A program made the translations under genes and the position numbers. The notes under the pieces were generated by a model. That model was not told where the DNA came from, searched no databases, and was given only the letters and a program-made list of their open reading frames with translations. This document shows, piece after piece, positions 9,376-57,827 of a DNA stretch of 64,000 bases. This stretch comes from Octopus vulgaris. Taxonomy: Eukaryota. Each line of letters begins with the position of its first letter. Within the stretch, counting starts at the first letter, position 1. The stretch spans positions 22,878,001 through 22,942,000 of the forward strand of contig OX597822.1 of assembly GCA_951406725.2 (NCBI GenBank), written 5' to 3'.

Positions 9376-12300
9376 ATCATCATCGTTTAGCATCCGCTTT
9401 CCATACTGGCATGGGTTGGACGGTGCAGCTGGGGTCTGGGAAGCCAGAAGGCTGCACCAGGCCCAGTCTGATCTGGCAATGTTTCTACGGCTGGATGCCC
9501 TTCCTAACGCCAACCACTCCATGAGTGTAGTGGGTGCTTTTTACGTGCCACCTGCACAGGTGCCAGACAAGTCTAGCAAACAGCCACGGTCAGATGGTGC
9601 TTTTTATGTGCCACCGGCACGTAGGCCAGGCGAGGCTGGCAACAGCCACGATTGGATGGTGCTTTTTACGTGCCACCGGCACGGAAGCCGGTCAGGGCGG
9701 CACTGGCAACGGCCACGTTTGGATGGTTCTCTTATGTGCCACCAGCACTGAATCACAATGACAATTTCCATTCATGTTGATCGATTTTTGATTTTGTCAT
9801 TTTTTGATTTTCACTTGCCTTAACAGGTCTTCGCAAGTAGGGTTTTGTGTCCCAAGAAGGAAAGGTATGCATAAGTGGACTGAGGCCATGGGTGATGGTC
9901 TCACTTGTCCTGCCGGGTCTTCTCACGCACAGCATACTTCCAAAGTTCTTGGTCTCTAGTCATTTCCTCGGTGAGACCTAAAGTTCGAAGGTCGTGCTTC
10001 ACCACCACATCCCAGGTTTTCCTGGGTCTGCCTCTTCCACAGATTCCCTCAACAGCTAGGGTGTGGCACTTTTTCACACAACTATCTTCATCCATTCTCG
10101 CCACATGGCCATACCAGCGCAAACGTCTCTCTTGCACACCACAACTGATGCTTCTTAGGTCCAGCTTTTCTCTCAAGGTACTTACACTCTGCCGAGTATG
10201 AGTACTGACATTACACATCCATCGGAGCATACTGGCTTCATTTCTTGCGAGCTTACGCATATCCTCAGCAGTCACGGCCCATATAGCATGGCTGTTCGTA
10301 CACAAGCATCATACAGTCTACCTTTTACTCTGAGCGAGAGGCCTTTTGTCCCTAGCAGAGGCAAGAACTCTCTGAACTTTGCCCAAGATATTCTTACTCT
10401 AGCAGTTACACTTTCAACACACCCGCCCCCGCTACTGACTTGGTCACCAAGGTAACGGAAGCTATCAACTATTTCTAGTTTTTCTCCCTGGAAAGTGACG
10501 GAAATTGGTCTCAGAGCATTTTCAGTGTTTATTGCTCCTGAGCATCTGCCACATACAAAAACTATCTTCCTAGTTAGCCTTCCCTTGACGTTGCTGCACC
10601 TCTTGTGTGTCCATAGCTTACACTTGGTGCATCTTATAGAGTTTCTACCTACGCCTTTCCTACAGATCAAGCAAGGCCATCTACCTGAAGGCGTTTGTGA
10701 CTTGTCTACCTTCCTACTTATTAAGGACTTTGGTTTTAGCTAGGTTGACTCTAAGGCCCTTCGATTCTAATCCTTGCTTCCACACCTGAAACTTCTCCTC
10801 CAGTTCTGATAGTGACTCAGCAATTAGAGCAAGGTCATCAGCATAGAGGAGCTCCCAGGGGCATCCTGTCTTGAATTCCTCCGTTATTGCCTGGAGGACT
10901 AGGATAAATAGGAGGGGGCTGAGGGCTGAACCTTGGTGGACCCCTACCTCTACCCGGAATTCTTCACTGTACTTGTAGCCAACCCTCACCTTACTAGCAG
11001 TGTCCCTGTACATGGCTTGCACAGCTCTCACTAACCATTCATCTATCCCTAGTTTCCTCATTGACCACCAGATAAGGGATCAGGGGACCCTGTCGAAAGC
11101 TTTCTCCATGTCAACGAAAGCCAGGTACAGGGGCTTATCTTTGGCTAGATATTTCTCCTGCAGCTTTCTTACCAGGAATATGGCATCAGTGGTGCTTTTC
11201 CCTGGCACGAATCCAAACTGCATCTCATCTAAACTAACTCTCTCTCTAATTAGTTGGGCTATGACCCTCTCCATAACCTTCATTACCTGATCCAACAGCT
11301 TGATACCTCTGTAATTATTTGTATCTAGGGCGTCACCTTTACCTTTGTAGCAGTTGACTATTATGCTGCTACACCAGTCATTGGCTTTGACTCCTTCGTA
11401 TATTACCTGGTTAACTATATGGGTGACTAGGCTATAGCCGACACTACCAGATATTTTGAGCATCTCTGCAGTAATTCCTGATGTGCCTGGGGCTTTCCCT
11501 GTCTTCATGCTTCTAATTGCCTCAATTACCAAGGAACTGTCAACTCGGATAGCTGGTCCCTCTGTTGGGTCGACATTCGGCAGACTCTCTTTATCCCATT
11601 CATTTTCTTCATTCAGCAACCTTTCATAGTGGCGTCTCCACACCTCTCTCTTTGCATCCTTATTTAGCGCAAGTGAACCATCATCCATGCAAACACATTT
11701 CTCTCCTACAACATCAAGATTCTCTCTCACACACTGTCTTGCAACGCAAAATACCTCAAGTCTTTGGTCCTCACAGCGCAGAACATTGGCAAATTTTTTC
11801 TTATCTGCTTCCCCTCTGGCTAAATAAACCTGTCTCCTAGCTTCTCTTTTGGCAGTCTGATACAATTCCCTGCGACCCTCATTTTTCCAGTCCTTCCAAG
11901 CCTGTCTCTTTTCTCTAATAGCCCTGTCTACAACATTGTTCCACCACCACGTTATTCTAGGTCGAGAGGGGGCTTTGCACCAGCCACAGATCTGGTCAGT
12001 GGCTCTCAGCAGGTTGTCCCTTAGAAACGTCCAGTTGTCTTCTATCCCCTTCTACTTTGTCAAAGGCTTCAAGTAATACGTCCCTAAATCTCTGTCCATT
12101 TGCAGGATCTTTAAGCTTCCAGATCCTTCTTCTCCATATTGGTCGTCTTCTGGTCGTCCTCTTAGTCCTGATCCTAAAGTCACTAACTACCAGTCTATGT
12201 TGTGGGGTACATTCTTTGCCTGGGAGGGTTTTGGCATTTATAAGCAGCCATCTTTCCCTTTTCCTGGCAAGGATGTAGTCAATTTGGCTGGTATGTCGAC

Positions 12301-34071: not shown

Positions 34072-36274
34072 GTAATGTATGACAATCATTTTCACTGATT
34101 TTTGTTTTCTTAAATTATTGCTTTAACATCCATCTTATCATGCTTGCACGGATTGGATGGAAGTTGTTCAGATAGATTTTTTTTAATGGCTGGATGCTGT
34201 TCCTGTCACCAACCCTCATCTCTGTTCCCAAGCAAGGTAGTATTTCCTCATGACCAGAGGTTATACTTTCATGGATATTGGGGAACAAAGGACACTGCCT
34301 GCAACTATCATGTGATGTCAAGGCAAGGAGGCAGTAACACACACACATACATTCATATATATATATACATGCATACATACAAACATACATAGACCTACAT
34401 ACATACATGCATGTGAAGGCGCATGGCACAGTGGTTAGAGCATTGGGCTCACAATCACGAGGTAGCGAGTTCGACTCCTGGACTGGACTGTGTGTTGTGC
34501 TCTTGAGCAAGACACTTTATTTCACATTGCTCCAATTCACTCAGCAGTAGAAATGAGTTGCGACATCACTGGTGCCAATCTGTATCAGTGTTTGCCTTTC
34601 CCTTGGATAACATCAGTGGTGTGGAGAGGGGAGGTATGCATGGACTGCTGGTTTGCATGGGCAACTGCTGACCAAAGGGGGTCTTTAGCTTTTACCCTCT
34701 GTATATATTTTAAATATTTAGCTGAAGAAGGGCAGTGAGTTGGCAGAATCTTTAGCATGCCAGGCAAAATGCTTAACGGCATTTCATCCCTCTTTGCATT
34801 CTGGGTTCAAATTCTGCCGAGGTCAATTTTTGCCTTTCACCTTTTCGGGTCAATAAAATAAGTACTAGTTGAGGACTGGGATCGATGTAATCAGCTTATC
34901 CAATTCCTTCAAACTTGCTGGCCTTGTGCCAAAATTTGAAACTAATATTTAGCAGAAGAGTGACCCAAGGTTTGAGAGTTTTGTGCATTAGCACTTATTA
35001 AACTAGTTACAAATCAAGGGGTTACAAATTTATATACTATTGATAATGATATTTCCTTGGATTGTTCTATCACAAGGCTTTGGTTGACTTGGTGACTGTG
35101 GTAGAAAATATTTTCCCAATGTGCCATATAGTGAGACTGAACTCAAAACCATGTGCTTGGGAAGCAAATTCTTTATTATCCAGCCATGCCTTCTAAATCT
35201 TACAGAATAAGTAGTTGTCTAAAAGTATTAAAGGGTACCATGGTCATTATCACTACCATACCCCTTAACCACCTCCACTGTGCTCCTCATTAAAGTTTTA
35301 TGGTCTGATATTTTCCAGGTTTCCCTGGCATTTGCAAGTTTATGTCCATTTAATTGTATGGATACTCAGGCATAGCAGTGCAGTTGAGATGTTTGTTTCC
35401 CAACCACATGGTTTTAGGTTCAGTCCCACTGCATAGCTGTTTGAGCAAGTGTCATCTACTAAAGCTCTAGGCCGACCAAAGCATATTGAGTGGATTTGTT
35501 GGATGGAAATTGAAAGAAGCCTGTTCCTGTGTGTGGTGTATCCTTGTCTTGGCATCATGTGATAGCTGTTAGCGAGTGTCACCACCATAAAAGCAGTGTC
35601 TTTGTTTCCAGTCTTCTGTGAAAACATGTCTGGCCTTGGGGAGATATTACTTTGCTTTGAAAGAAGTAACTGTTGACAACAGAAAGGGCATCCAGCCATA
35701 GAAAACCTCTCAATAAATTCCTGCTGGACCCATAAAAGTATGGAAAAGTGAACATTAAAACAACGATGACAACAACAATTCAGATTTCCATTTAAAGGAC
35801 CATTTCCTTAGCTTCCAAGTAATGAACCTTACTATCCCCTTTTTCATCTCATTCCCTGTACTCATGACTAAAACATAAATTAATTAAACACTGATGAGAA
35901 GGCATCATTGAAGTCAGAAAGGAGAAAGTCTTCCAAAAGCAACAACGGCATTTCTATTTAACCCTTTCGTTACCAACCCGGCTGAAACCAGCTCTAGCTT
36001 TGAGTACAAATGTCTTGTTTTCATAAGTTTTGAATTAAAATCTGCCACCAAACCTTAGTCACAATTTATGTTCCTAACACTAACTGAATGATGACTAAGT
36101 TATTTTACTAAATTCTTTGTTATATTTAAAGTAATTGAAAGAAACACAGAACATCTCAAAATAAATACAGTAACAAAAGGATTAAAGGGTCATTTCCTTA
36201 GCCTCTTAGTAATGAATCTCACTATCCCGTCTTCATTTCACTCCCTGTACTTGTGTCCAAAACATAAATTAATT

Positions 36275-37433
36275 ATATACTAGGTGACCAAGTCAGCAGC
36301 GGGGGCGGGTGTGCTGAAAGTGTAACTGCTAGAGTAAGAATAGCTTGGGCAAAGTTCAGAGAGCTCTTACCTCTGCTGGTGACAAAAGGCCTCTCGCACA
36401 GAGTGAAAGGCAGACTATGATGCGTGTGTACGAACAGCCATGCTACATGGCAGTGAAACATGGGCCGTGACTGCTGAGGATATGCGTAAGCTCGCAAGAA
36501 ATGAAGCCAGTATGCTCCGATGGATGTGTAATGTCAGTACTCATACTCGGCAGAGTGTAAGTACCTTGAGAGAAAAGCTGGACCTAAGAAGCATCAGTTG
36601 TGGTGTGCAAGAGAGACGTTTGCGCTGGTATGGTCATGTGGCGAGAATGGATGAAGATAGTTGTGTGAAAAAGTGCCACACCCTAGCGGTTGAGGGAACC
36701 TGTGGAAGAGGCAGACCCAGGAAAACCTGGGACGAGGTGGTGAAGCACGACCTTCGAACTTTAGGTCTCACTGAGGAAATGACTAGAGACCGAGTCCTCT
36801 GGAAGTGTGCTGTGCGCGAGAAGACCTGGCAGGACAAGTGAGTCCATAACCCGTGGCCTTCTACATGGGATGGAGCCAGCCTACGTATGCATACCTTCCC
36901 TTCTTGGGACACAAAACTCTACTTGTGAAGACCTGTTGAGGCAAGTGAGGATCAGAATCGAAATCGATCAATGGAAATTGCAGATGTGTTACCAGTGCCG
37001 GTGGCATGTCAAAACTCTACTTGTGAAGACCCGTTGAGGCAAGTGAGGATCAGAATGGAAATCGATCAATGGAAATTGCAGATGTGTTACCAGTGCCGGT
37101 GGCATGTAAGAGAACCTTCCGTTTCGCGACCGTTGCCAGCACCGCCCCGTTTCGTGTCCGTTGCCAGCCTTGCCTGGCCCTCGTGCCGGTGGCACATAAA
37201 AAGCACCATCCGTTCGTGGCCGTTTGCCAGCTCTGTCTGGCACCTGTGCGGGTGGCACGTAAAAAGCACCCACTACACTCACGGAGTGGTTGGCGTTAGG
37301 AAGGGCATCCAGCCGTAGAAACACTGCCAGATTTGACTGGGCCTGATGAAGCCTTCTGGCTTCACAGACCCCAGTAGAACCGTCCAACCCATGCTAGCAT
37401 GGAAAACGGACGCTAAACGATGATGATGATGAT
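36275..37433 (+). mobile_element. 5'-truncated copy of the same RTE LINE family (TMEM67 intron 5)
   Basis: MLHGSETWAVTAEDMRKLARNEASMLRW...GRGRPRKTW is nearly identical to 9901-10450; same 3' UTR and (GAT)n tail. Confidence 0.95.
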
Positions 37434-37518
37434 ACTGATTACAAGATGACATTAAAATCATGCAGAGTCTCCCAGAGATCTATGAAATATTCTACTGATG
37501 TTTTGTTTTTTTCTTCAG

Positions 37519-37587
37519 GTTGGAGATGTTTGTTTCCAAAAGAAAAGTGATATCATAGCAAAGCCATCTTACTACATACGATTGAGT
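37519..37587 (+). CDS. TMEM67: TMEM67 exon 6
   Basis: ttcttcag|; VGDVCFQKKSDIIAKPSYYIRLS (cf. 'GGLCF'); |gtaaga. Confidence 0.8.
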
Positions 37588-38377
37588 GTAAGAAATATCT
37601 TCATTTATTTATTGAATTATTTATCTATTTCATGTTAATTCCTCCAATTAGTAGCATCTAGTTTTGCAATAAAGAAGTAAGAGAGAGTAAAAAGAGGAAA
37701 AAGGCCCAAAAGAAAGAGTAAGAATAAATTATAATTTCCCATTCCTCACAGCAATTTATTTAATATTCCATAACCTCTCTTTTTGATATCTTTTTAACTT
37801 CAGGATTGTCTCCTGCTTGTGCTAAAATTATTTAACTAATATTAATCAATGGTTAATATTCTTTTTTTCTTTACCACATAATTACCACTTGTTAGATTTT
37901 ATTTTAATACTCCACTTGTATTAAATATATAAATACTAACTTAATTATTTTTTTTTTGTGCAGTTGACATCTTTGAGTAATTTATTCTTTAAACATTTCC
38001 TTGTCAATCAGTAAATCCTAAACATTTTACTTAGTGGTTCTCCCATCACTGCTTCAGTAAACAGGTGAAAGCTATACTTTACTGATGAGGTCATAATAAG
38101 ACTGGAGGTTTTTTTAGAGTTGCCTCCCGTACTGGCTGAAATAAATATATTATTACTCAGTGGCAGTCTCTGTATCCTGTTTAACATGGATGTATTATAA
38201 GAGTGCCATAATACTGCAGAATTTGTCCTGAGAAAATCTCTTGTGTAGACTCTACTGTATATAAGCATCTATCCCTCTGTTTGCTTCTCTCTCTCTCTCT
38301 CTCTGGCTAAGTAAGACTTGATTTTAAGCCATTGGGTGTCAGCCCAATCATGAATTTGGTTTAATGGTATTATATTC

Positions 38378-39204
38378 CTCCAAGTAAGTTTTGTTATTTA
38401 TAATTGTGACGCGAATCTCTACAACTCTTTGCTTGACCTTCTCTTCCTTTCCTATCTCCCTCTCTCTCACTCCTCCTCCTCATCTCTTTCTCACAGCCGC
38501 TTGTCTTCCTCTATCTTTCTCTCCCTACTCCTCCTCATCTCTTTCACAGCCGGGCGAGTTGCTTCCTTTCGCCACTGGCATTCTAACAGTGAACACTGTT
38601 CTTCTAGCGCTCTTACAATCTTTCCTCGTGTAGGCCAGCATTAAGGCCCTCATTGTCTGTTTTCTTGTTTGTTTTATTCTTGTACTGTATTTTTCGTAAC
38701 TTGTAATTTTATTCTGTATTTTTATTATTTGTATTTTTATTTTGTATTTTATTTTATTTGTATCATTTTTTTGTCACATGTTTAACTTTCCTTGTTTTTA
38801 CCCCTCTGCGAAGTAATTTTTTAAAATTCCTTCGCAGGAAGGACTAGTTCCACGAGTCGTGTTCTGTCCAACCTTTGAAACACGCTAGAGTTGAACTAGG
38901 GACAGCTGATGAACGGGATTTTTCCTTGTGCAGTTTGTCTTGTACTCTGTTTTTTTCGTTTAGGTCCGTTTCCACGTTTGTTTTTACGTTTTCGTTTCTC
39001 GTTGAGTTCTACGTCTATTTGTGGTGTCCTGTACTTACGTATATATATTTATATATATGCATGTATATATACATGTAGATGTAGGTACGTACATATATGT
39101 ATGTATGCATATATTTTATTTATTACACTATTGTATGACTGAGCGCCCTCGCGTCGATCCGATCCGATTCGTTTTCGTTTCCTTTCATCTCCAAGTAAGT
39201 TTTG

Positions 39205-39208
<4 letters not shown>
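38378..39208 (+). mobile_element. ~830-bp insertion bounded by 20-bp direct repeats, probably PLE-related
   Basis: ctccaagtaagttttgttat at 38378-38397 and 39189-39208; contains hairpins and CTGATGA/GAAA motifs. Confidence 0.55.
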
Positions 39209-39247
<39 letters not shown>

Positions 39248-39466
39248 TCATTTGATGGAAGAAATGTCGAAAATATATATGGAGTTGGAGACTTAATCAT
39301 GAAGAACTGATTTAATTTATTTATTCTGTTAATGAGCTAAACTTGATTATTTCTGCTAATCAATAGTGAAATTAATGTATTCTCAAAAACATTTAATTAT
39401 TATTGTTCAATATCAGTTTAATTAGATACTGTCTTTACATTTACCAATTTTTTATTTTTCTTCCAG

Positions 39467-39532
39467 ACTGATGATTTGGTGGAATCCCATCTTCTTAGAC
39501 AGAACCTCATCATTTCATACGGAATGTGTCAT
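39467..39532 (+). CDS. TMEM67: TMEM67 exon 7
   Basis: long pyrimidine tract then ccag|; TDDLVESHLLRQNLIISYGMCH (cf. 'LTSEWFAKYLQSSAAAC'); |gtttgt, phase 0. Confidence 0.75.
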
Positions 39533-42500
39533 GTTTGTATATATATATTCCTTTATTCTTTTACTTGTTTTAGTCATTTTAATTGTGGCTATGCTGGAGC
39601 ACCACCTTGAAGGGTTTTTTTAGTTGAATGAATCGCCTCACCCCCCCCCCCCAGTACTTATTTCCTTTTAAAGTCTGGTACTTGTTCTATCGGTCTTCTT
39701 GTGCCAAACTACTAAGTCATGGGGACGTAAACACACCAACACCTGTTGTCAAGTGGTGATGGGGAAACAGACACAGACACATGATGGGCTTCTTTCAGTT
39801 TCCATCTTCCACTCACAAGGCTTCCAAATTCACTCACAAGACTGTGATTGGCCTGAGGCTATTGTAGAAGGCACTTGCCCCAAGTGTCACACAGTGGGAC
39901 TGAACCTGGAACCATGTGGTTGGGAAGCAAGCAGTGTTGTATGCATTTTGCTTGACGATGTCATGTGATCTAACTCCATGGTCACATGATTTAAGTCTTC
40001 TATTTTATTTGTTTCAGTCATTTGACTGCGGTCATGCTGGAGCACCTTCTTTAGTTGAACAAATTGATCCCAGGACTTATTCTTTGTATGCCTAGTACTT
40101 ATTCTATCAATCTCTTTTGCTGAACCACTAAGTTACGGGTATGTAAACACACCAACATCAGTTGTCAAGCGATGGTGGGGGAACACACAGACACACACAC
40201 ACACACACACACACACACTTAGGGCTTCTTTCAGTTTCCATCTACCAAATACACTCACAAAACTTTGGTCAGCCTGGAGCTATAGTAGAAAACATTTGTC
40301 CAAGGTGCCATGCAGTGGGACTGAACCCGGAACCGTGTGGTTGGTAAACAAGCTACTTACTACACAGTCACTTCTGCACCTATAGCCATGTTTACAAATT
40401 TCTTCCCTTATGATATGTCTTACATGCAATTACAGATTTCTCTGGTTATCCAGTTACTTAAACCCAGTGGGAGTAAGAGGTAGCTTATGACTACATTTTT
40501 ACTTTGATAGACACTTTACTGTGAGATTACATTAACACTTTACCCGACCTGTTTATCAATTGTAATCCGCAGGACATATTTCCCAGTTGTCCATGCATCA
40601 TATATAATATACATTCCCAATTTTTTTCAACCACAAAAGTAACTTGAGACTTATGAGAGGAAAGCTTTATATTGCTCAGAATGTATGAAACAAGGACAAA
40701 CTAAATCTGAAAGCAAGCATTGATGTTTAGGGCAGACTTATGAAAATGCTTTGGACAAGAAAAAGGGTTAATGAACCTGAATAAGGCCCTGTTTTCAGAA
40801 AAACAAAGCCAATCTAATTGGTGGTAATAATTTTCTGTAATGGATGACGTAACAAATATATTTGGGTTATTGAGTTGCGAATTTTTGTTCTGTATTAGTG
40901 TAGAAAGTTATTGTAAGTGGGTGGAATCTTAGGTGAGTGTCTTCCACTATAGCCTTGTGCTGCTAAAGCCTTGTGAGTGGATTTGGTTAAGGGAAACTGA
41001 AAGAAACCTGTCATATATATGTAAAAAAAAAAAATGCCCCCCCCTCTTTTCGTCATGAATGATAATGGGATTGCACCTAGAAAGATCCCTGCCGAGGCAC
41101 AAGTCCAGGCAAGGTTGTTTATGGAAGACCAGCAGTCACCCATGCATACCAGCCTCCCTTCTCCACGCCACTGATGTTATTCAAGGAAAAGGCAAAGTTC
41201 CAAGACAGCTTGGAACCAGTGATAGCGCAACTCATTTCTATAGCTGAGTGAACTGGAGCAACATGAATAAAGTGTTTTGTTCAAAGGACACAACACGCAT
41301 CCCAGTCCGGCAATCAAACTCACTACCTCATGATTGTGAGCCCAACCACTGAGCTGTGTGCCTTCATATGTGAATGTGTGTGTGTGTTGTTATCTAGATA
41401 TCACATGATGGTTGTAAACGAGCATCTCTGTCATTCAAGCAAGGTTGTTCAATTCCAGTCCTCTGTGAAAAACATGAACCATAGAGAAATATTACCATAT
41501 TCAGATGCCGTGCCGGTAGCATGTAAAAAGCACCATTCGAGCATGATCATTACCTGTGTCGCCTTACTGGCATCTGTGCTGGTGGCATGTGAAAAAATAT
41601 TTGAGCGAGGTTGTTGCCAGTGCCGCTGGACTGGCTCCTGTGCAGATGGCACATAAAAAGCACCATTTGAGCGTGGCCATTGCCAGTACTGCCTGACTAG
41701 CCCTTGTGCCGGTGGCATGTAAAAGCACCCGCTACACTTTTGGAGTGGTTGGCGTTAGGAAGGGCATCCAGCTGTAGAAACTCTGCCAGATCAGATTGGA
41801 GCCTGGTGCAGCCATCTGGTTCGCCAGACCTCAGTCAACTCGTCCAACCCATGCTAGCATGGAAAGTGGATGTTAAATGATGATGATGATGATGAGATAC
41901 AGGTGAGGATTGGCAACAGGAAGAGTATCTAGCCATAAAAAATCTTCAACAAATTCTGTCTGACCCATACATGCATGGAAAAAGTTTACATCTGTTTATC
42001 ATCAACATCATTAATGATGATGACTAGATGTAAAACTAATCCCACCATATTAATAATGTAGATTTTGACCTTCTGACCTGTTATCCTCTTTGTCATGATT
42101 TTTTTTTTACTGTATCCAATGTCTTTTATTGTATAGCAGAGCACAGGCACTTAATGTGGATTGTCTATGAGTTATAGAAGATATAAATATTTATCTGTCT
42201 TAACCATAACCATCACTCAAACTGACAGGAGTAATATGATTGACAGCTGCATGCTAAGCATATTGTTGTTGATAATGACCATTCATAAACATTTACTTAG
42301 AAAGAAAAAAACTAAAACACGTGTATGTCTGTGTATGGGCAATTTGAAAATAAAAATAAAACCAAATGTCTAAAGGATGTACACAGTGAATGTATAAGGT
42401 TGACACTCAGTTTAAGATGGCGAAAAGATGGTGGGGTAATTTTCTGAGCATGGGTTTTTGTCAGTAGGAGGAGAAAGGAAAAATCCAGAGAGATGGAAAA

Positions 42501-45208: not shown

Positions 45209-46210
45209 GTATATGTGCAGGCATGGCTGTGTGGTTAAGATGTGTGTTTCCTAAACAAATAGTTTTGAGTTCAATACCTCTACATGGCACTTTGGGTAAA
45301 TGTCTTCTGTTGTAGTCCTGATAGAAGAGACCTGATAGATAGAAACTGAAAGATCCCTAGTGTGTGTGTATATCTATATGTACATACACACATAGATCTT
45401 TGTGTGTGTTTGTCCTTGACATTATGTCATAGTTGTAAACAAGTGTCACCCTCATTTGAGTGGTGTCCTTTGTTTCCAGTATGTGTAATCATGCCCAGGC
45501 ATAGGGAAATATAACCTTGCTTAGTGATGTTTGATAAACTTGGAGAGCTAAAACAAAAATCTTTAAGAGGTGAAAAAGAAAATCTAAGAGATAAAAAAAT
45601 TAAGGATAAAAAATAGAATCAGTCCTGCCAGGATTTGAGCCCAGAACATGAAACACAATTTGGAATTAACTCTTAATACATTCATTTAAACTCTTTAGCA
45701 TTCAGATTACTTTGTCAAATGTAGTACTTATTTATTCACATTGTTTTTAATTAATTATGTATTATCTTGTAGCTTTGAGATTTCAGTAATATTTATTTCT
45801 TTATTGCCCACAAGGGGCTAAACATAGAGAGGACAAACAAGGACAGACAAAGGGACTAAGTTGATTACATTGACCCCAGTGCGTAACTGGTACTTATTTA
45901 ATCGACCCCGAAAAGGATGAAAGGCAAAGTCAACCTCGGTGGAATTTGAACTCAGAACGTAACGGCAGACGAAATACGGCTACACATTTTGCCTGGCGTG
46001 CTAACGTTTCTGCCAGCTCACTGCCTTAAGAGATTTCAGTAATTTGATTGCATATTTTTAGGATAATATTGTATGGTAGGTGCGAGAGGCCAGATCTAGT
46101 TGATTTGAACATAAAGCAAGTAGAATGTTTTGGCCTGATATGGCCGGTTTAAATGCTAAAGGGCTAAGATGTCACCCTAAGTAACTGAATTTTAACTTTT
46201 GTTATTACAG

Positions 46211-48563: not shown

Positions 48564-50964
48564 GTATCCTTTGCTGAATTCTGAAGATCTTTCAGTAGTT
48601 TCTCAATGTTTTAAAATTCTTGCATTTAAATGGATTTGTGGAGGAGCTTCTACACAGCTACTGAGCCTATTCAATATAGCAAATGTAACACTAACATTTT
48701 TAACACCAAACTGCCAGATACTGTTCTTGGTTCTACAATGCAAACTTCCTGTTTTAAAGTGAACTAAATTAAAGCTTCTCATTGAAATGTCAAGTTAATT
48801 TATGTTAAGAAAATTCCCCCTAAAACTAATTTAATCATGACAAAAATTACTAATTTTTTTATTATTTTCAAAACTGATTGAAACAAAGGCAGTATATTTC
48901 AACAAAAATATGGTTACAAAAGGGTTAATATTGCATTAAATCTTGTGTTAAATCTACATATAATTGTTACTTTGAATATTATTATTATTATTATTGTTGT
49001 TTTAAAATAAAACATGGTCCATTGTCTTCTGCTGAACCGGGGTTATCCCTTGACCCTAGGGTTACAGCAGGTCCTCATCTCACGGAAAGTACACGGTGTA
49101 AAATGTGTGCCGAACCTAGCAACACTATTTTCTGAAGTTCTCCCACATTAACACTGTAGGGGAGTTTGTTGAGCTGATTATCAAGGCCCTTTTTAATTAG
49201 CCCTAACACTCCAATCACCACTGGTGCTGTGCTGTGCTGCTTTTCATTCCCCACGTCTTGGTCACTTCTATTTCTAGGTCTTTGTACTTATATAACTTCT
49301 CAACTTCTTTAATGGACACATTTCTCCCTGATGGTACTGTCACATCTATCATCAAGCATTTCTTATTCTTCTCATCTTTGATGATTATGTCTGGCCTTTT
49401 TGCCTTGATTTCTTTATCGGTGTTGATTGGCATGTCCCAGAGTACTGTTACATCATCTTTTCCGGTCACAGTTTCAGGTTTATGCTGGTACCATCTTTCT
49501 GAAGTTGGAAGCTGGTAGTGTTTACATATCTTCCAATGGATATATTGCGCTACTCTATTGCGTCTATGAATGTATTCGATTTTTGAAAGCGCTGTGCATC
49601 CAGTTAAGATGTGGTCCACTGTGACACATTGGCAGAATTGGTTGAGCATCGGACAAAATGCCTTGCGGTATTGATTCCACCTCCTTGGAAATCCATGACG
49701 AACTAGTTGAGTGGTAGACTTAATCCATTGCCTAGTTTAACTCCATTACTTTGCACCTTGTATACCTTTACTAAAAAGTCCACTCTGTTGCAAGCATTCT
49801 GGCCAGGCACCTGTTTTGAGGATACTGTCCTTCCTTCCTTCCTCCTATCTGTCTCAGAGGCCCTGTAAAAAGTCATGGATACTGGGTTCCCTTTTCACTG
49901 AAAATTTCCTTTTTAAAATTGAAAGACACAGCATTTTGGAACTACTGGTATATTTTAACCTTGTGACTATCACAACAAAAAAATTTAAAATGAAAAGAAA
50001 TTGTGTTAATATATTTACTGTCCTGTTCACTGATCATTACAGCTAACGACATATTGCCATCTCCTGAAGTCATAAATATTTGTAAGCCTCATAGTGTCAT
50101 TATCACTCTTTATTTTAATGTTCTACTTTCTGCAGTAGTTATTGGTAGTAGACGTCATATATATTGTGATTTACTGTTTGTATCCTACTTTTAAATAGGT
50201 ATGTCATGTTCTTACAGATTATAAAAGTTAGGTTCTGGTGGCAAGATGTGCTTCAAGCTGTAAAACATTGCTTCAAAAACACAACTTCAATTAGTGTCAT
50301 TATAGGGATGTGGTGGTGGGAATGGAAAAGATTGTCATAGTGCCTACAAGACTAACCTGGGCTTGAGCAGGAGAAATCGTCTTGTCCTTTTAATGCTAAT
50401 CCACCTCAGACTACTTCTAGTTCTATGATGCAACTTTCATTTGATTAAACCTTTGATTAAAAATTCTTGAATGTGGTGCCCCAGCTTGGACAAAATCTAA
50501 TGACTGAAGCAAGTAAAAGATAAAAGGTTGTACAACCTCATTCCCTATCTTCAATAAATCTGAAGTCTTAGTGTACAGAGGCCTTAATATGAATTCGATA
50601 TGTTTTATGTTTATTTAATTTTTTTTTTACTTGTTTCAGTCATTGAACTGTGGCCAGTCTTGAAGGGTACTTATTTGACCCCAGCTCTCTTTTCTTTTTT
50701 TAAAGTTTGATAGTTATTCTGTTATTTTATTTTGCCAAACTGCTAAGTTATTGGGATATAAACAAACCAACACCAGGTTGTCAAACAGTGGTGGGGAACA
50801 AACACAACACAGAAACATGTATATACACACACACACATCTGCACTCGCACACTCAAATTTTTCCAACTTGTAATTGATAGAAAGCCATTATTCTTGTATG
50901 TTAATATTATATTTGTTTGTCTGTTTTTTTTTTTTTGGGGATATTTCCTTAATTATTTGATGAG
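48564..50964 (+). other. U12-type (minor spliceosome) GT-AG intron of TMEM67
   Basis: 5' site GTATCCTTT; branch motif TTTCCTTAAT at 50944-50953, about 12 nt before AG; no polypyrimidine tract between branch motif and AG; phases fit (T|AT = Tyr). Confidence 0.9.
48978..49650 (-). mobile_element. 3' fragment of an R4/Dong-like LINE with restriction-like endonuclease, inside the U12 intron
   Basis: C..C...TVDHILTGC zinc knuckle, RPDIII...IDVTVP...EK..KY.DL REL motif; ends in (TAA)n. Confidence 0.85.
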
Positions 50965-57347: not shown

Positions 57348-57827
57348 TCATCATCATCATCGTTTAACGTCCGCTTCCCATGCTAGCATGGGTTGGACGA
57401 CTTGACTGAAGTCTGGCGAACTAGATGGCTGCATCAGGTTCAAGTCTGATCTAGCAGAGTTTCTACAGCTGGATGCCCTTCCTAATGCCAACCACTCCAA
57501 GAGTATAGTGGGTGCTTTTATGTTCCACCGGCACAAGGCCCAGTCAGGCAGTACTGGCAATGGCCATGCTCAAATGGTGCTTTTTATGTGTCACCTGCAC
57601 AGAAGCCAGTCCAGTGGCACTGGCAACGACCTCACTTGAATGTTTTTTCATGTGCCACCAGCACAAGTGCCAGTAAGGCGACGCAGGTAACGATTATGCT
57701 CGAATGGTGCTTTTTATGTGCCACCGTCACGGAAGCCAGTTTGTTACTCTGGCAACGATCACGCTTGGATGGTACTCTTAGTGTTCCACTAGCACGGATG
57801 CCAGTCATCGAATTTGATTTCAATTTC
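57348..57827 (-). mobile_element. RTE-tail element with arrayed GTGCC(G/A)GTGGCAC hairpin units; similar copies ~41503-41893 (+) and 63524-64000 (-)
   Basis: Shares the ...ggcgttaggaagggcatccagc...(GAT)n end with the RTE LINE but has no ORF. Confidence 0.8.

Follow-up and report, generated by a model that had tools for sequence, protein, structure and literature searches.

A predicted hammerhead ribozyme with permuted strands and a four-way junction in a non-coding Penelope-like element of Octopus vulgaris

The window analysed here is a stretch of 64,000 nucleotides (nt) of Octopus vulgaris contig OX597822.1 (assembly GCA_951406725.2, positions 22,878,001 to 22,942,000 of the forward strand). 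Matches to PF09773 (Meckelin) lie on its + strand, one of them at window position 46197, and exon-like frames were recognized by eye at about 37518 and 39467, in agreement with an initial annotation that had placed a hammerhead-like motif in sense orientation in an intron of Meckelin/TMEM67. The intron carries a non-coding Penelope-like insertion, for which the initially given boundaries, 38378-39208, fit. The segment 38801-38917 within this insertion very likely represents one copy, with slight decay, of a predicted hammerhead ribozyme. The strands of this ribozyme are permuted in a non-circular manner, its A9-G10.1 link is predicted to be turned into a four-way junction, and it likely cuts after position 38863. 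Blocks S, G and C, used below to name its parts, were defined by Eckert et al. 2023, who validated type-SGC (HRIMA-1) and type-CSG hammerheads (PMC10085705). The features, all on the + strand, are as follows.

38378-39209 (+): Penelope-like insertion without coding capacity, made up of the last 21 nt of a preceding unit and one unit of 811 nt (38399-39209), then (TA)n
39132-39209 (+): optional 78-nt tail, between two recurrent 3' ends, 39131 and 39209
38801-38805 (+): helix X, 5' strand, CCCCT, partner 38913-38917
38806-38837 (+): hairpin Y, with 38806-13 paired with 38830-37, adjoining X on one side and stem II on the other
38838-38842 (+): stem II 5' strand, GAAGG, coming from upstream, with G10.1 at 38838
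38844-38850 (+): helix Pb, 5' strand, partner 38893-38899, bridging stems I and II at their distal ends
38858-38869 (+): block S, comprising the stem III 5' strand, U16.1-H17 (38862-63), the predicted cut 38863/38864 and the stem I 5' strand
38872-38884 (+): block G, comprising the stem II 3' strand, GAAA (38877-80) and the stem III 3' strand
38893-38899 (+): helix Pb, 3' strand, partner 38844-38850
38900-38912 (+): stem I 3' strand followed by CUGAUGA, as read from the sequence
38913-38917 (+): helix X, 3' strand, partner 38801-38805

Read 5' to 3', the order of parts is X', hairpin Y, the 5' strand of stem II, Pb, III', UH, I, II', GAAA, III, Pb', I', CUGAUGA and X, which is the SGC/CSG cyclic order opened within block C. 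The core of CUGAnGA, GAAA and UH is present, and stems I, II and III adjoin it and covary, stem II with the upstream strand. In hammerheads, A9 is normally followed by the stem II 5' strand within 0-2 nt; here the strand after A9 pairs in X, and in the predicted fold a four-way junction of core, X, Y and II, with zero unpaired bases, replaces the A9-G10.1 link. All strands of the initial annotation are located where it had put them, at 38858-38917: CGTG (38858-61), TT (38862-63), CTGTCC (38864-69), AA, CCTTT (38872-76), GAAA (38877-80), CACG (38881-84), GGACAG (38900-05), CTGATGA (38906-12) and ACGGG (38913-17). Chance is excluded, since a 26-mer taken from the family has 535 exact matches in the genome and its reversed control has 0. 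The proposed non-circular permutation, with a link of 2-3 nt from stem I to stem II, was likewise confirmed. The RNA is not limited to this segment; it extends 57 nt further 5' and includes three more helices, X, Y and Pb.

Comparison with 30 close copies identifies two decayed positions in the window copy. Position 38876 is T here and C in 29/30 copies, turning a G-C pair of stem II into G.U, and position 38914 is C here and G in 28/30 copies, which weakens X. The usual sequences are thus AGGGG after CUGAUGA (28/30) and CCTTC before GAAA (29/30), each with a perfect upstream partner, CCCCT (38801-05) and GAAGG (38838-42), respectively, and with only hairpin Y between these partners. Because of the C at 38876, the stem II pairing initially counted as four of five starts in most copies with an A-C mismatch. 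The description of a single decayed copy was right about the decay, while the copy is one of hundreds, and a ctag..ctag hairpin noted in the linker exists in the window copy but not in most others, since the first ctag reads CTGG in 24/30 copies. An Rfam search of 36000-42000 gave no hammerhead match up to E 10, only AT-repeat microRNA noise near the locus, and eight loci gave no hammerhead at the gathering score, as is expected because the strand order is permuted.

A 161-nt query returned 2062 first-look candidates in the genome. Units of the family, named here family A, are joined head-to-tail, with the 39208 to 38399 junction present in eight loci (L002, L004, L006, L015, L018, L020, L027, L030). 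Copies are 5'-truncated, with an inverted 5' piece in L011, L018, L019, L020 and L025. The 3' ends of 90 copies fall near 39131 in 37, run into the tail in 35 and are unclassed in 18, and (TA)n follows. The repeat 38378-98/39189-209 was considered as a target-site duplication and rejected, as other copies carry it at both places and it represents unit overlap. No copy joined to an open reading frame (ORF) was seen among the family A loci examined. The host is classed as a non-autonomous Penelope-like unit, because its units lie in tandem, are truncated at the 5' end, may have an inverted 5' piece or an optional tail, target microsatellites and lack an ORF. In L023, L035, L038 and L044 the upstream unit also spans the ribozyme, up to about 1.6 units in all, which fits uncut or circular templates. 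The family is also present in contigs of sequencing runs from four organisms.

Related forms were sought in the genome with patterns in which the core letters were imposed. Patterns with GAAA before CUGAUGA gave 795 matches against 0 in the control, and a second such pattern, applied genome-wide outside families A-D, gave 4270 against 366. The full-structure descriptor had 117 matches in 336 loci, with 0 in reversed and 0 in block-shuffled sequences. Seven families beyond A (B-H) were found among the first 30 loci listed for each pattern and 30 from another search; the listing of the 4270 matches, with L329 and L336 among its loci, shows more families than the eight parsed.

All six helices covary. 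With one natural copy from each of the eight families, 197/208 helix positions are paired, compared with a mean of 112 and a maximum of 146 in 20000 permutations of 3' strands among families, and with cross-family pairing of 40-57% per helix. Compensatory changes distinguish families A and B in hairpin Y, and L316 and L317 of family G in stem II (GAACG/CGTTC vs GAAGG/CCTTC). Stems I and III, for which a comparison of homologues had been suggested in the initial annotation, were found to covary. Two alignments, A2 with misaligned upstream helices and A4 with wrong coordinates in row L191, were excluded from the counts, and in A3 stem I is shifted in three rows. Nested folding of L004, L053 and L350 (z-scores -2.4, -2.5 and -3.2) recovers X, Y, Pb and III, whereas neither the 5' strand of stem II nor the 3' strand of stem I is paired in these folds; that of L175 recovers Y only. 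Segment 38835-38925 folded alone has a z-score of 0.35, which is uninformative, as this segment does not include X and Y and two of the helices form pseudoknots.

BLAST comparison of family A with families C, D, E, F and H gave no link, and only G matched, resembling family A by 71-74% downstream of the core. In families E and F, the motif lies in the 3' untranslated region (UTR) of a non-LTR element (one that lacks long terminal repeats) with a restriction-like endonuclease. Relatives of these elements encode PF00078 proteins of 1021-1094 amino acids, the R2 protein being the best solved match of one, and Pfam search of family E frames gave nothing above the cut-off. These elements may belong to the HERO clade. 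Some HERO families target microsatellites (PMC4640811). In L322 (E), L332-L335 (F) and L337-L389 the four-way fold is about 120-150 nt past the ORF and about 100 nt before the (TA)n end; no 5'-end pile-up was found in this group (0/19).

With a protein of a restriction-endonuclease element as bait, 53 metagenome loci were collected, 40/53 with a tail of at least 250 nt. The full structure was parsed in 14/53 (two identical), compared with 0/101 control cores, and 13 of the 14 parses lie 118-256 nt past the protein match. Among 25 loci that could be anchored, 16 have CTGAnGA at a distance of 90-200 nt beyond the motif that ends the ORF, and none has it on the opposite strand (0/25). Alignment of 10 relatives, taken from the 14 parsed loci, shows 90.3% of 351 cells paired and 21/36 pairs changing on both sides; this pairing was reached in 0/500 shuffles, and slid controls gave 33-50%. 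Preferences usual in hammerheads are G-C at 10.1-11.1 and C-G at 15.2-16.2. In the 13 distinct metagenome parses, where these letters were not imposed, they occur in 12 and 13, respectively, and the first pair of X is variable.

Genomic copies also bear a footprint at the predicted cut. After mapping of 5' ends by gapped alignment (ungapped mapping was confounded by a 1-nt indel), the first sample had 27/89 ends 0-19 nt after 38863/38864 and 1/62 in the preceding 20 nt (Fisher p 2.5e-6; 4.6 ends expected from the upstream rate). This sample comprises 90 of the first 100 places listed for the 26-mer, chosen by position; it omits eight copies from other searches (six long, one ending at +3, one near +21) and two more. 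The second sample, the first 92 of 100 places listed for an anchor further 3', had 20/75 after and 3/55 before the cut (p 0.002), with background rates at +20 to +65; four rows not reaching past the anchor lie outside the bins, and about 12 ends are shared with the first sample. In families B, C, D and G, 12/35 ends fall between the cut and GAAA. Overall, of the copies long enough to reach the ribozyme, about 30% have their end 0-19 nt past the predicted cut, as expected if the template is cleaved there.

A mechanism can be proposed on these grounds. Stacking of X with Y would keep stem II in place on the core, and the far ends of stems I and II would be clamped by Pb and by the 2-3 nt link between these stems. 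The RNA would be cleaved after 38863, and the reverse transcriptase of a helper Penelope-like element might then copy the unit from one of two internal starts, 39131 or 39209, into (TA)n. Copying would end at the cut in about 30% of cases, and the remaining 70% or so could arise by read-through on uncut or re-ligated/circular RNA. The copies in 3' UTRs of long interspersed nuclear elements (LINEs) do not stop at the cut.

Several observations weigh against a cleaving four-way hammerhead. The window copy is short of one X pair and may be inactive. In family A H17 is U, and nested folding lengthens stem III into the core, likely an inactive fold; together, these two features may slow cleavage in this family. 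Nested folding of L334, L308 and L337 (z-scores 0.64, 0.03 and -0.61) misses the model. Among the metagenome loci 39/53 were unparsed, 13 with a tail shorter than 250 nt and many others apparently decayed. Some counts lean towards the model: the alignment of 10 relatives was built from parse-positive loci, and helix boundaries in the eight-family and 13-metagenome parse counts were set by a parser that maximizes pairing; in the eight-family count, this parser placed D, E and F in a register other than the best. Finally, in families A and B a stem II in the +1 register, formed by the strand after CUGAUGA, also pairs 4/4 (G-C, G.U, G.U, G-C), favouring a plain type-SGC hammerhead, possibly with one extra A. 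A viroid hammerhead reportedly carries an extra A after A9. We regard this reading as highly improbable, as the upstream partners covary with both strands and the stem II of the initial annotation (acggg/ccttt) pairs in 0/4 positions in family F and L338, 1/4 in H and 2/4 in C; in the 10 relatives it is 40% paired, no better than shuffles (415/500 as high), and the best slid register reaches 68%.

About 70% of copies that reach the ribozyme read through the site, and families E, F and H show no pile-up (0/22 ends). Both facts would suit a fold that is kept for another role, such as binding of reverse transcriptase or promoter activity, with the pile-up reflecting a stall or transcription start. 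The Poseidon element, for which the available text reports that hammerhead cleavage is dispensable in vitro and that no reads end at the site (PMC11167929), points in the same direction. Against this stands the sharp 5' edge of the pile-up at the first base after UH, with ends at 0, 0, +1, +2, +2 and +3, and upstream of it one end at -4, in a GT repeat, and the next at -23. Ends are not in excess at the fold's 3' edge, the point at which a stall would begin, and the catalytic nucleotides are all retained across unrelated elements. We thus consider such a role distinctly unlikely. Less easily set aside, if still rather doubtful, is a dimer as the active species, in which one copy would provide the S/G loop, and the following tandem copy or a separate molecule the stem II and block C strands that pair with it. 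Pb runs almost without a break into stem III (0-10 nt between them on one strand, 2-7 on the other), so a monomer would need a sharp U-turn; the element is arranged in tandem units, covariation is blind to the difference between cis and trans, and small Penelope hammerheads cleave as dimers, going by the title of a cited work. On the other side, single type-SGC constructs with a Pb-to-III link of 0-44 nt cleave during transcription (PMC10085705; molecularity is not addressed in the available part of that text), and families E and F, in the loci examined, apparently consist of lone copies in a 3' UTR.

Other retroelement sequences were also observed in the window. A 173-amino-acid frame at 49218-49736 (-) is a fragment of another retrotransposon of the restriction-endonuclease type, by motifs recognized by eye, and 36407-36838 (+) holds an ORF end, by motif presumably RTE-like. 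Related tandem repeats of 62-66 nt are scattered at 9533-9748, 37151-37270, 41510-41729 and 57511-57740.

Penelope-like Naiad elements are among the known systems that most resemble the octopus unit. As described by Craig et al. 2021 (PMC8557442), Penelope-like elements occur in tandem and as inverted 5'-truncated copies with tails, and Naiads target (TA)n. The octopus unit shares all of these features, and Frangieh et al. 2024 relate the tail to two internal reverse-transcription start sites (PMC11167929). The available text of the Naiad paper gives no canonical hammerhead, only an unexplained 'HHR_core' (10 rows) and 'HHR_half_core' (8 rows) (PMC8557442). By eye, the four-way form ends at least 8 of the 54 consensi in the accessible part of its File S5 (Bfor, Amil, Aacu, Anas, Plae, Naiad-4_Dst, Obim and Ovul), with Bfor, which has a 2-bp stem I, as the weakest case. 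The plain CSG order ends at least four of 54 (Parc, Naiad-2_Nbra, Naiad-3_Nbra and Hcon). These counts are lower bounds, as motifs across line ends were missed and several passages could not be parsed, and the names rest on the order of File S5 equalling that of the metadata. Naiad_Parc, Naiad-2_Nbra, Naiad-3_Nbra and Naiad_Hcon are nematode elements, and by eye their type-CSG form has a helix joining stems I and II; type CSG was previously known from two metagenome sequences.

By eye, family C matches the consensi of Naiad_Obim and Naiad_Ovul at their 3' end, and the family C locus L202 has broken upstream frames that look by eye like reverse transcriptase (RT), for which Pfam and protein searches gave nothing significant. 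Family A differs from Naiad in having no ORF, no BLAST match to family C loci and no upstream ORF with GIY-YIG and RT; given the missing BLAST link of A to C, we can only infer its descent from Naiad. By eye, the upstream part of L190 shows RT-associated frames of another retroelement, with an apparent GIY-YIG endonuclease that follows a CxxxxCxxC motif; elements of this class are candidate helpers for family A.

The initial annotation had called the topology undescribed; the S-G-C order was in fact already published and validated experimentally (PMC10085705), the only source of SGC/CSG hammerheads in the literature searched. The new part is helices X, Y and Pb, and the strand order was already known. 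No four-way or core-split hammerhead was found in the literature searched, which covered few subscription journals. It appears likely that a core opened at A9-G10.1 and sealed by a four-way junction constitutes an undescribed, ancient and widespread self-cleaving module of animal retroelements, common to Naiads of a ctenophore, corals, an acanthocephalan, an ostracod and octopus and to unrelated LINEs with a restriction endonuclease, with nematode Naiads carrying plain type CSG; Naiads would then not be hammerhead-free, and non-circular permutations would be common in animal genomes. Such a module breaks the explicit assumption that block C cannot be split and offers a possible answer to the Naiad puzzle of missing hammerheads and unexplained half-cores. 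If this is true, non-circularly permuted ribozymes are no longer confined to anonymous contigs of metatranscriptomes but exist in animal genomes by the thousands, and the presence of one fold in two retroelement classes that are unrelated makes one ask whether the module was transferred or arose by convergence. The 5'-end pile-up provides genomic evidence that in vivo a Penelope-type hammerhead acts on the RNA used as template, a function that is still regarded as unclear. The descriptor is short and can be used and assayed by others.

Retrozyme hammerheads are minimal type I. Non-LTR retrozymes (10.64898/2026.07.22.740005) resemble the octopus element in being non-coding tandem hammerhead units, likely mobilized by Penelope-like elements, while the available part of that text is silent on permuted and four-way forms, on octopus and on SGC. 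Natural core insertions and pseudoknots between stems I and II, reported by Perreault et al. 2011 (PMC3088659), are also similar; those insertions are of only 1-2 nt, and 'four-way' and 'multistem' have 0 occurrences in the text available. The nearest match is type SGC, with which the octopus form shares the block order, a short linker between stems I and II, and a helix linking the other sides of I and II, here Pb. In the accessible description of type SGC, block C is assumed to be unbroken, with CUGAnGA separated from its stems by no more than 1-2 nt, and the permuted forms are said to lack a multi-stem junction (PMC10085705). The octopus form takes its stem II 5' strand from upstream and has X and Y making a four-way junction. 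It also occurs in high-copy animal retroelements; the previously described permuted types came from metatranscriptomes and metagenomes, with a known organism for one GCS case only, according to the available text (PMC10085705). The octopus hammerhead thus works like SGC and is not classed as a member of that type, as its block C is interrupted and its junction is multi-stem.
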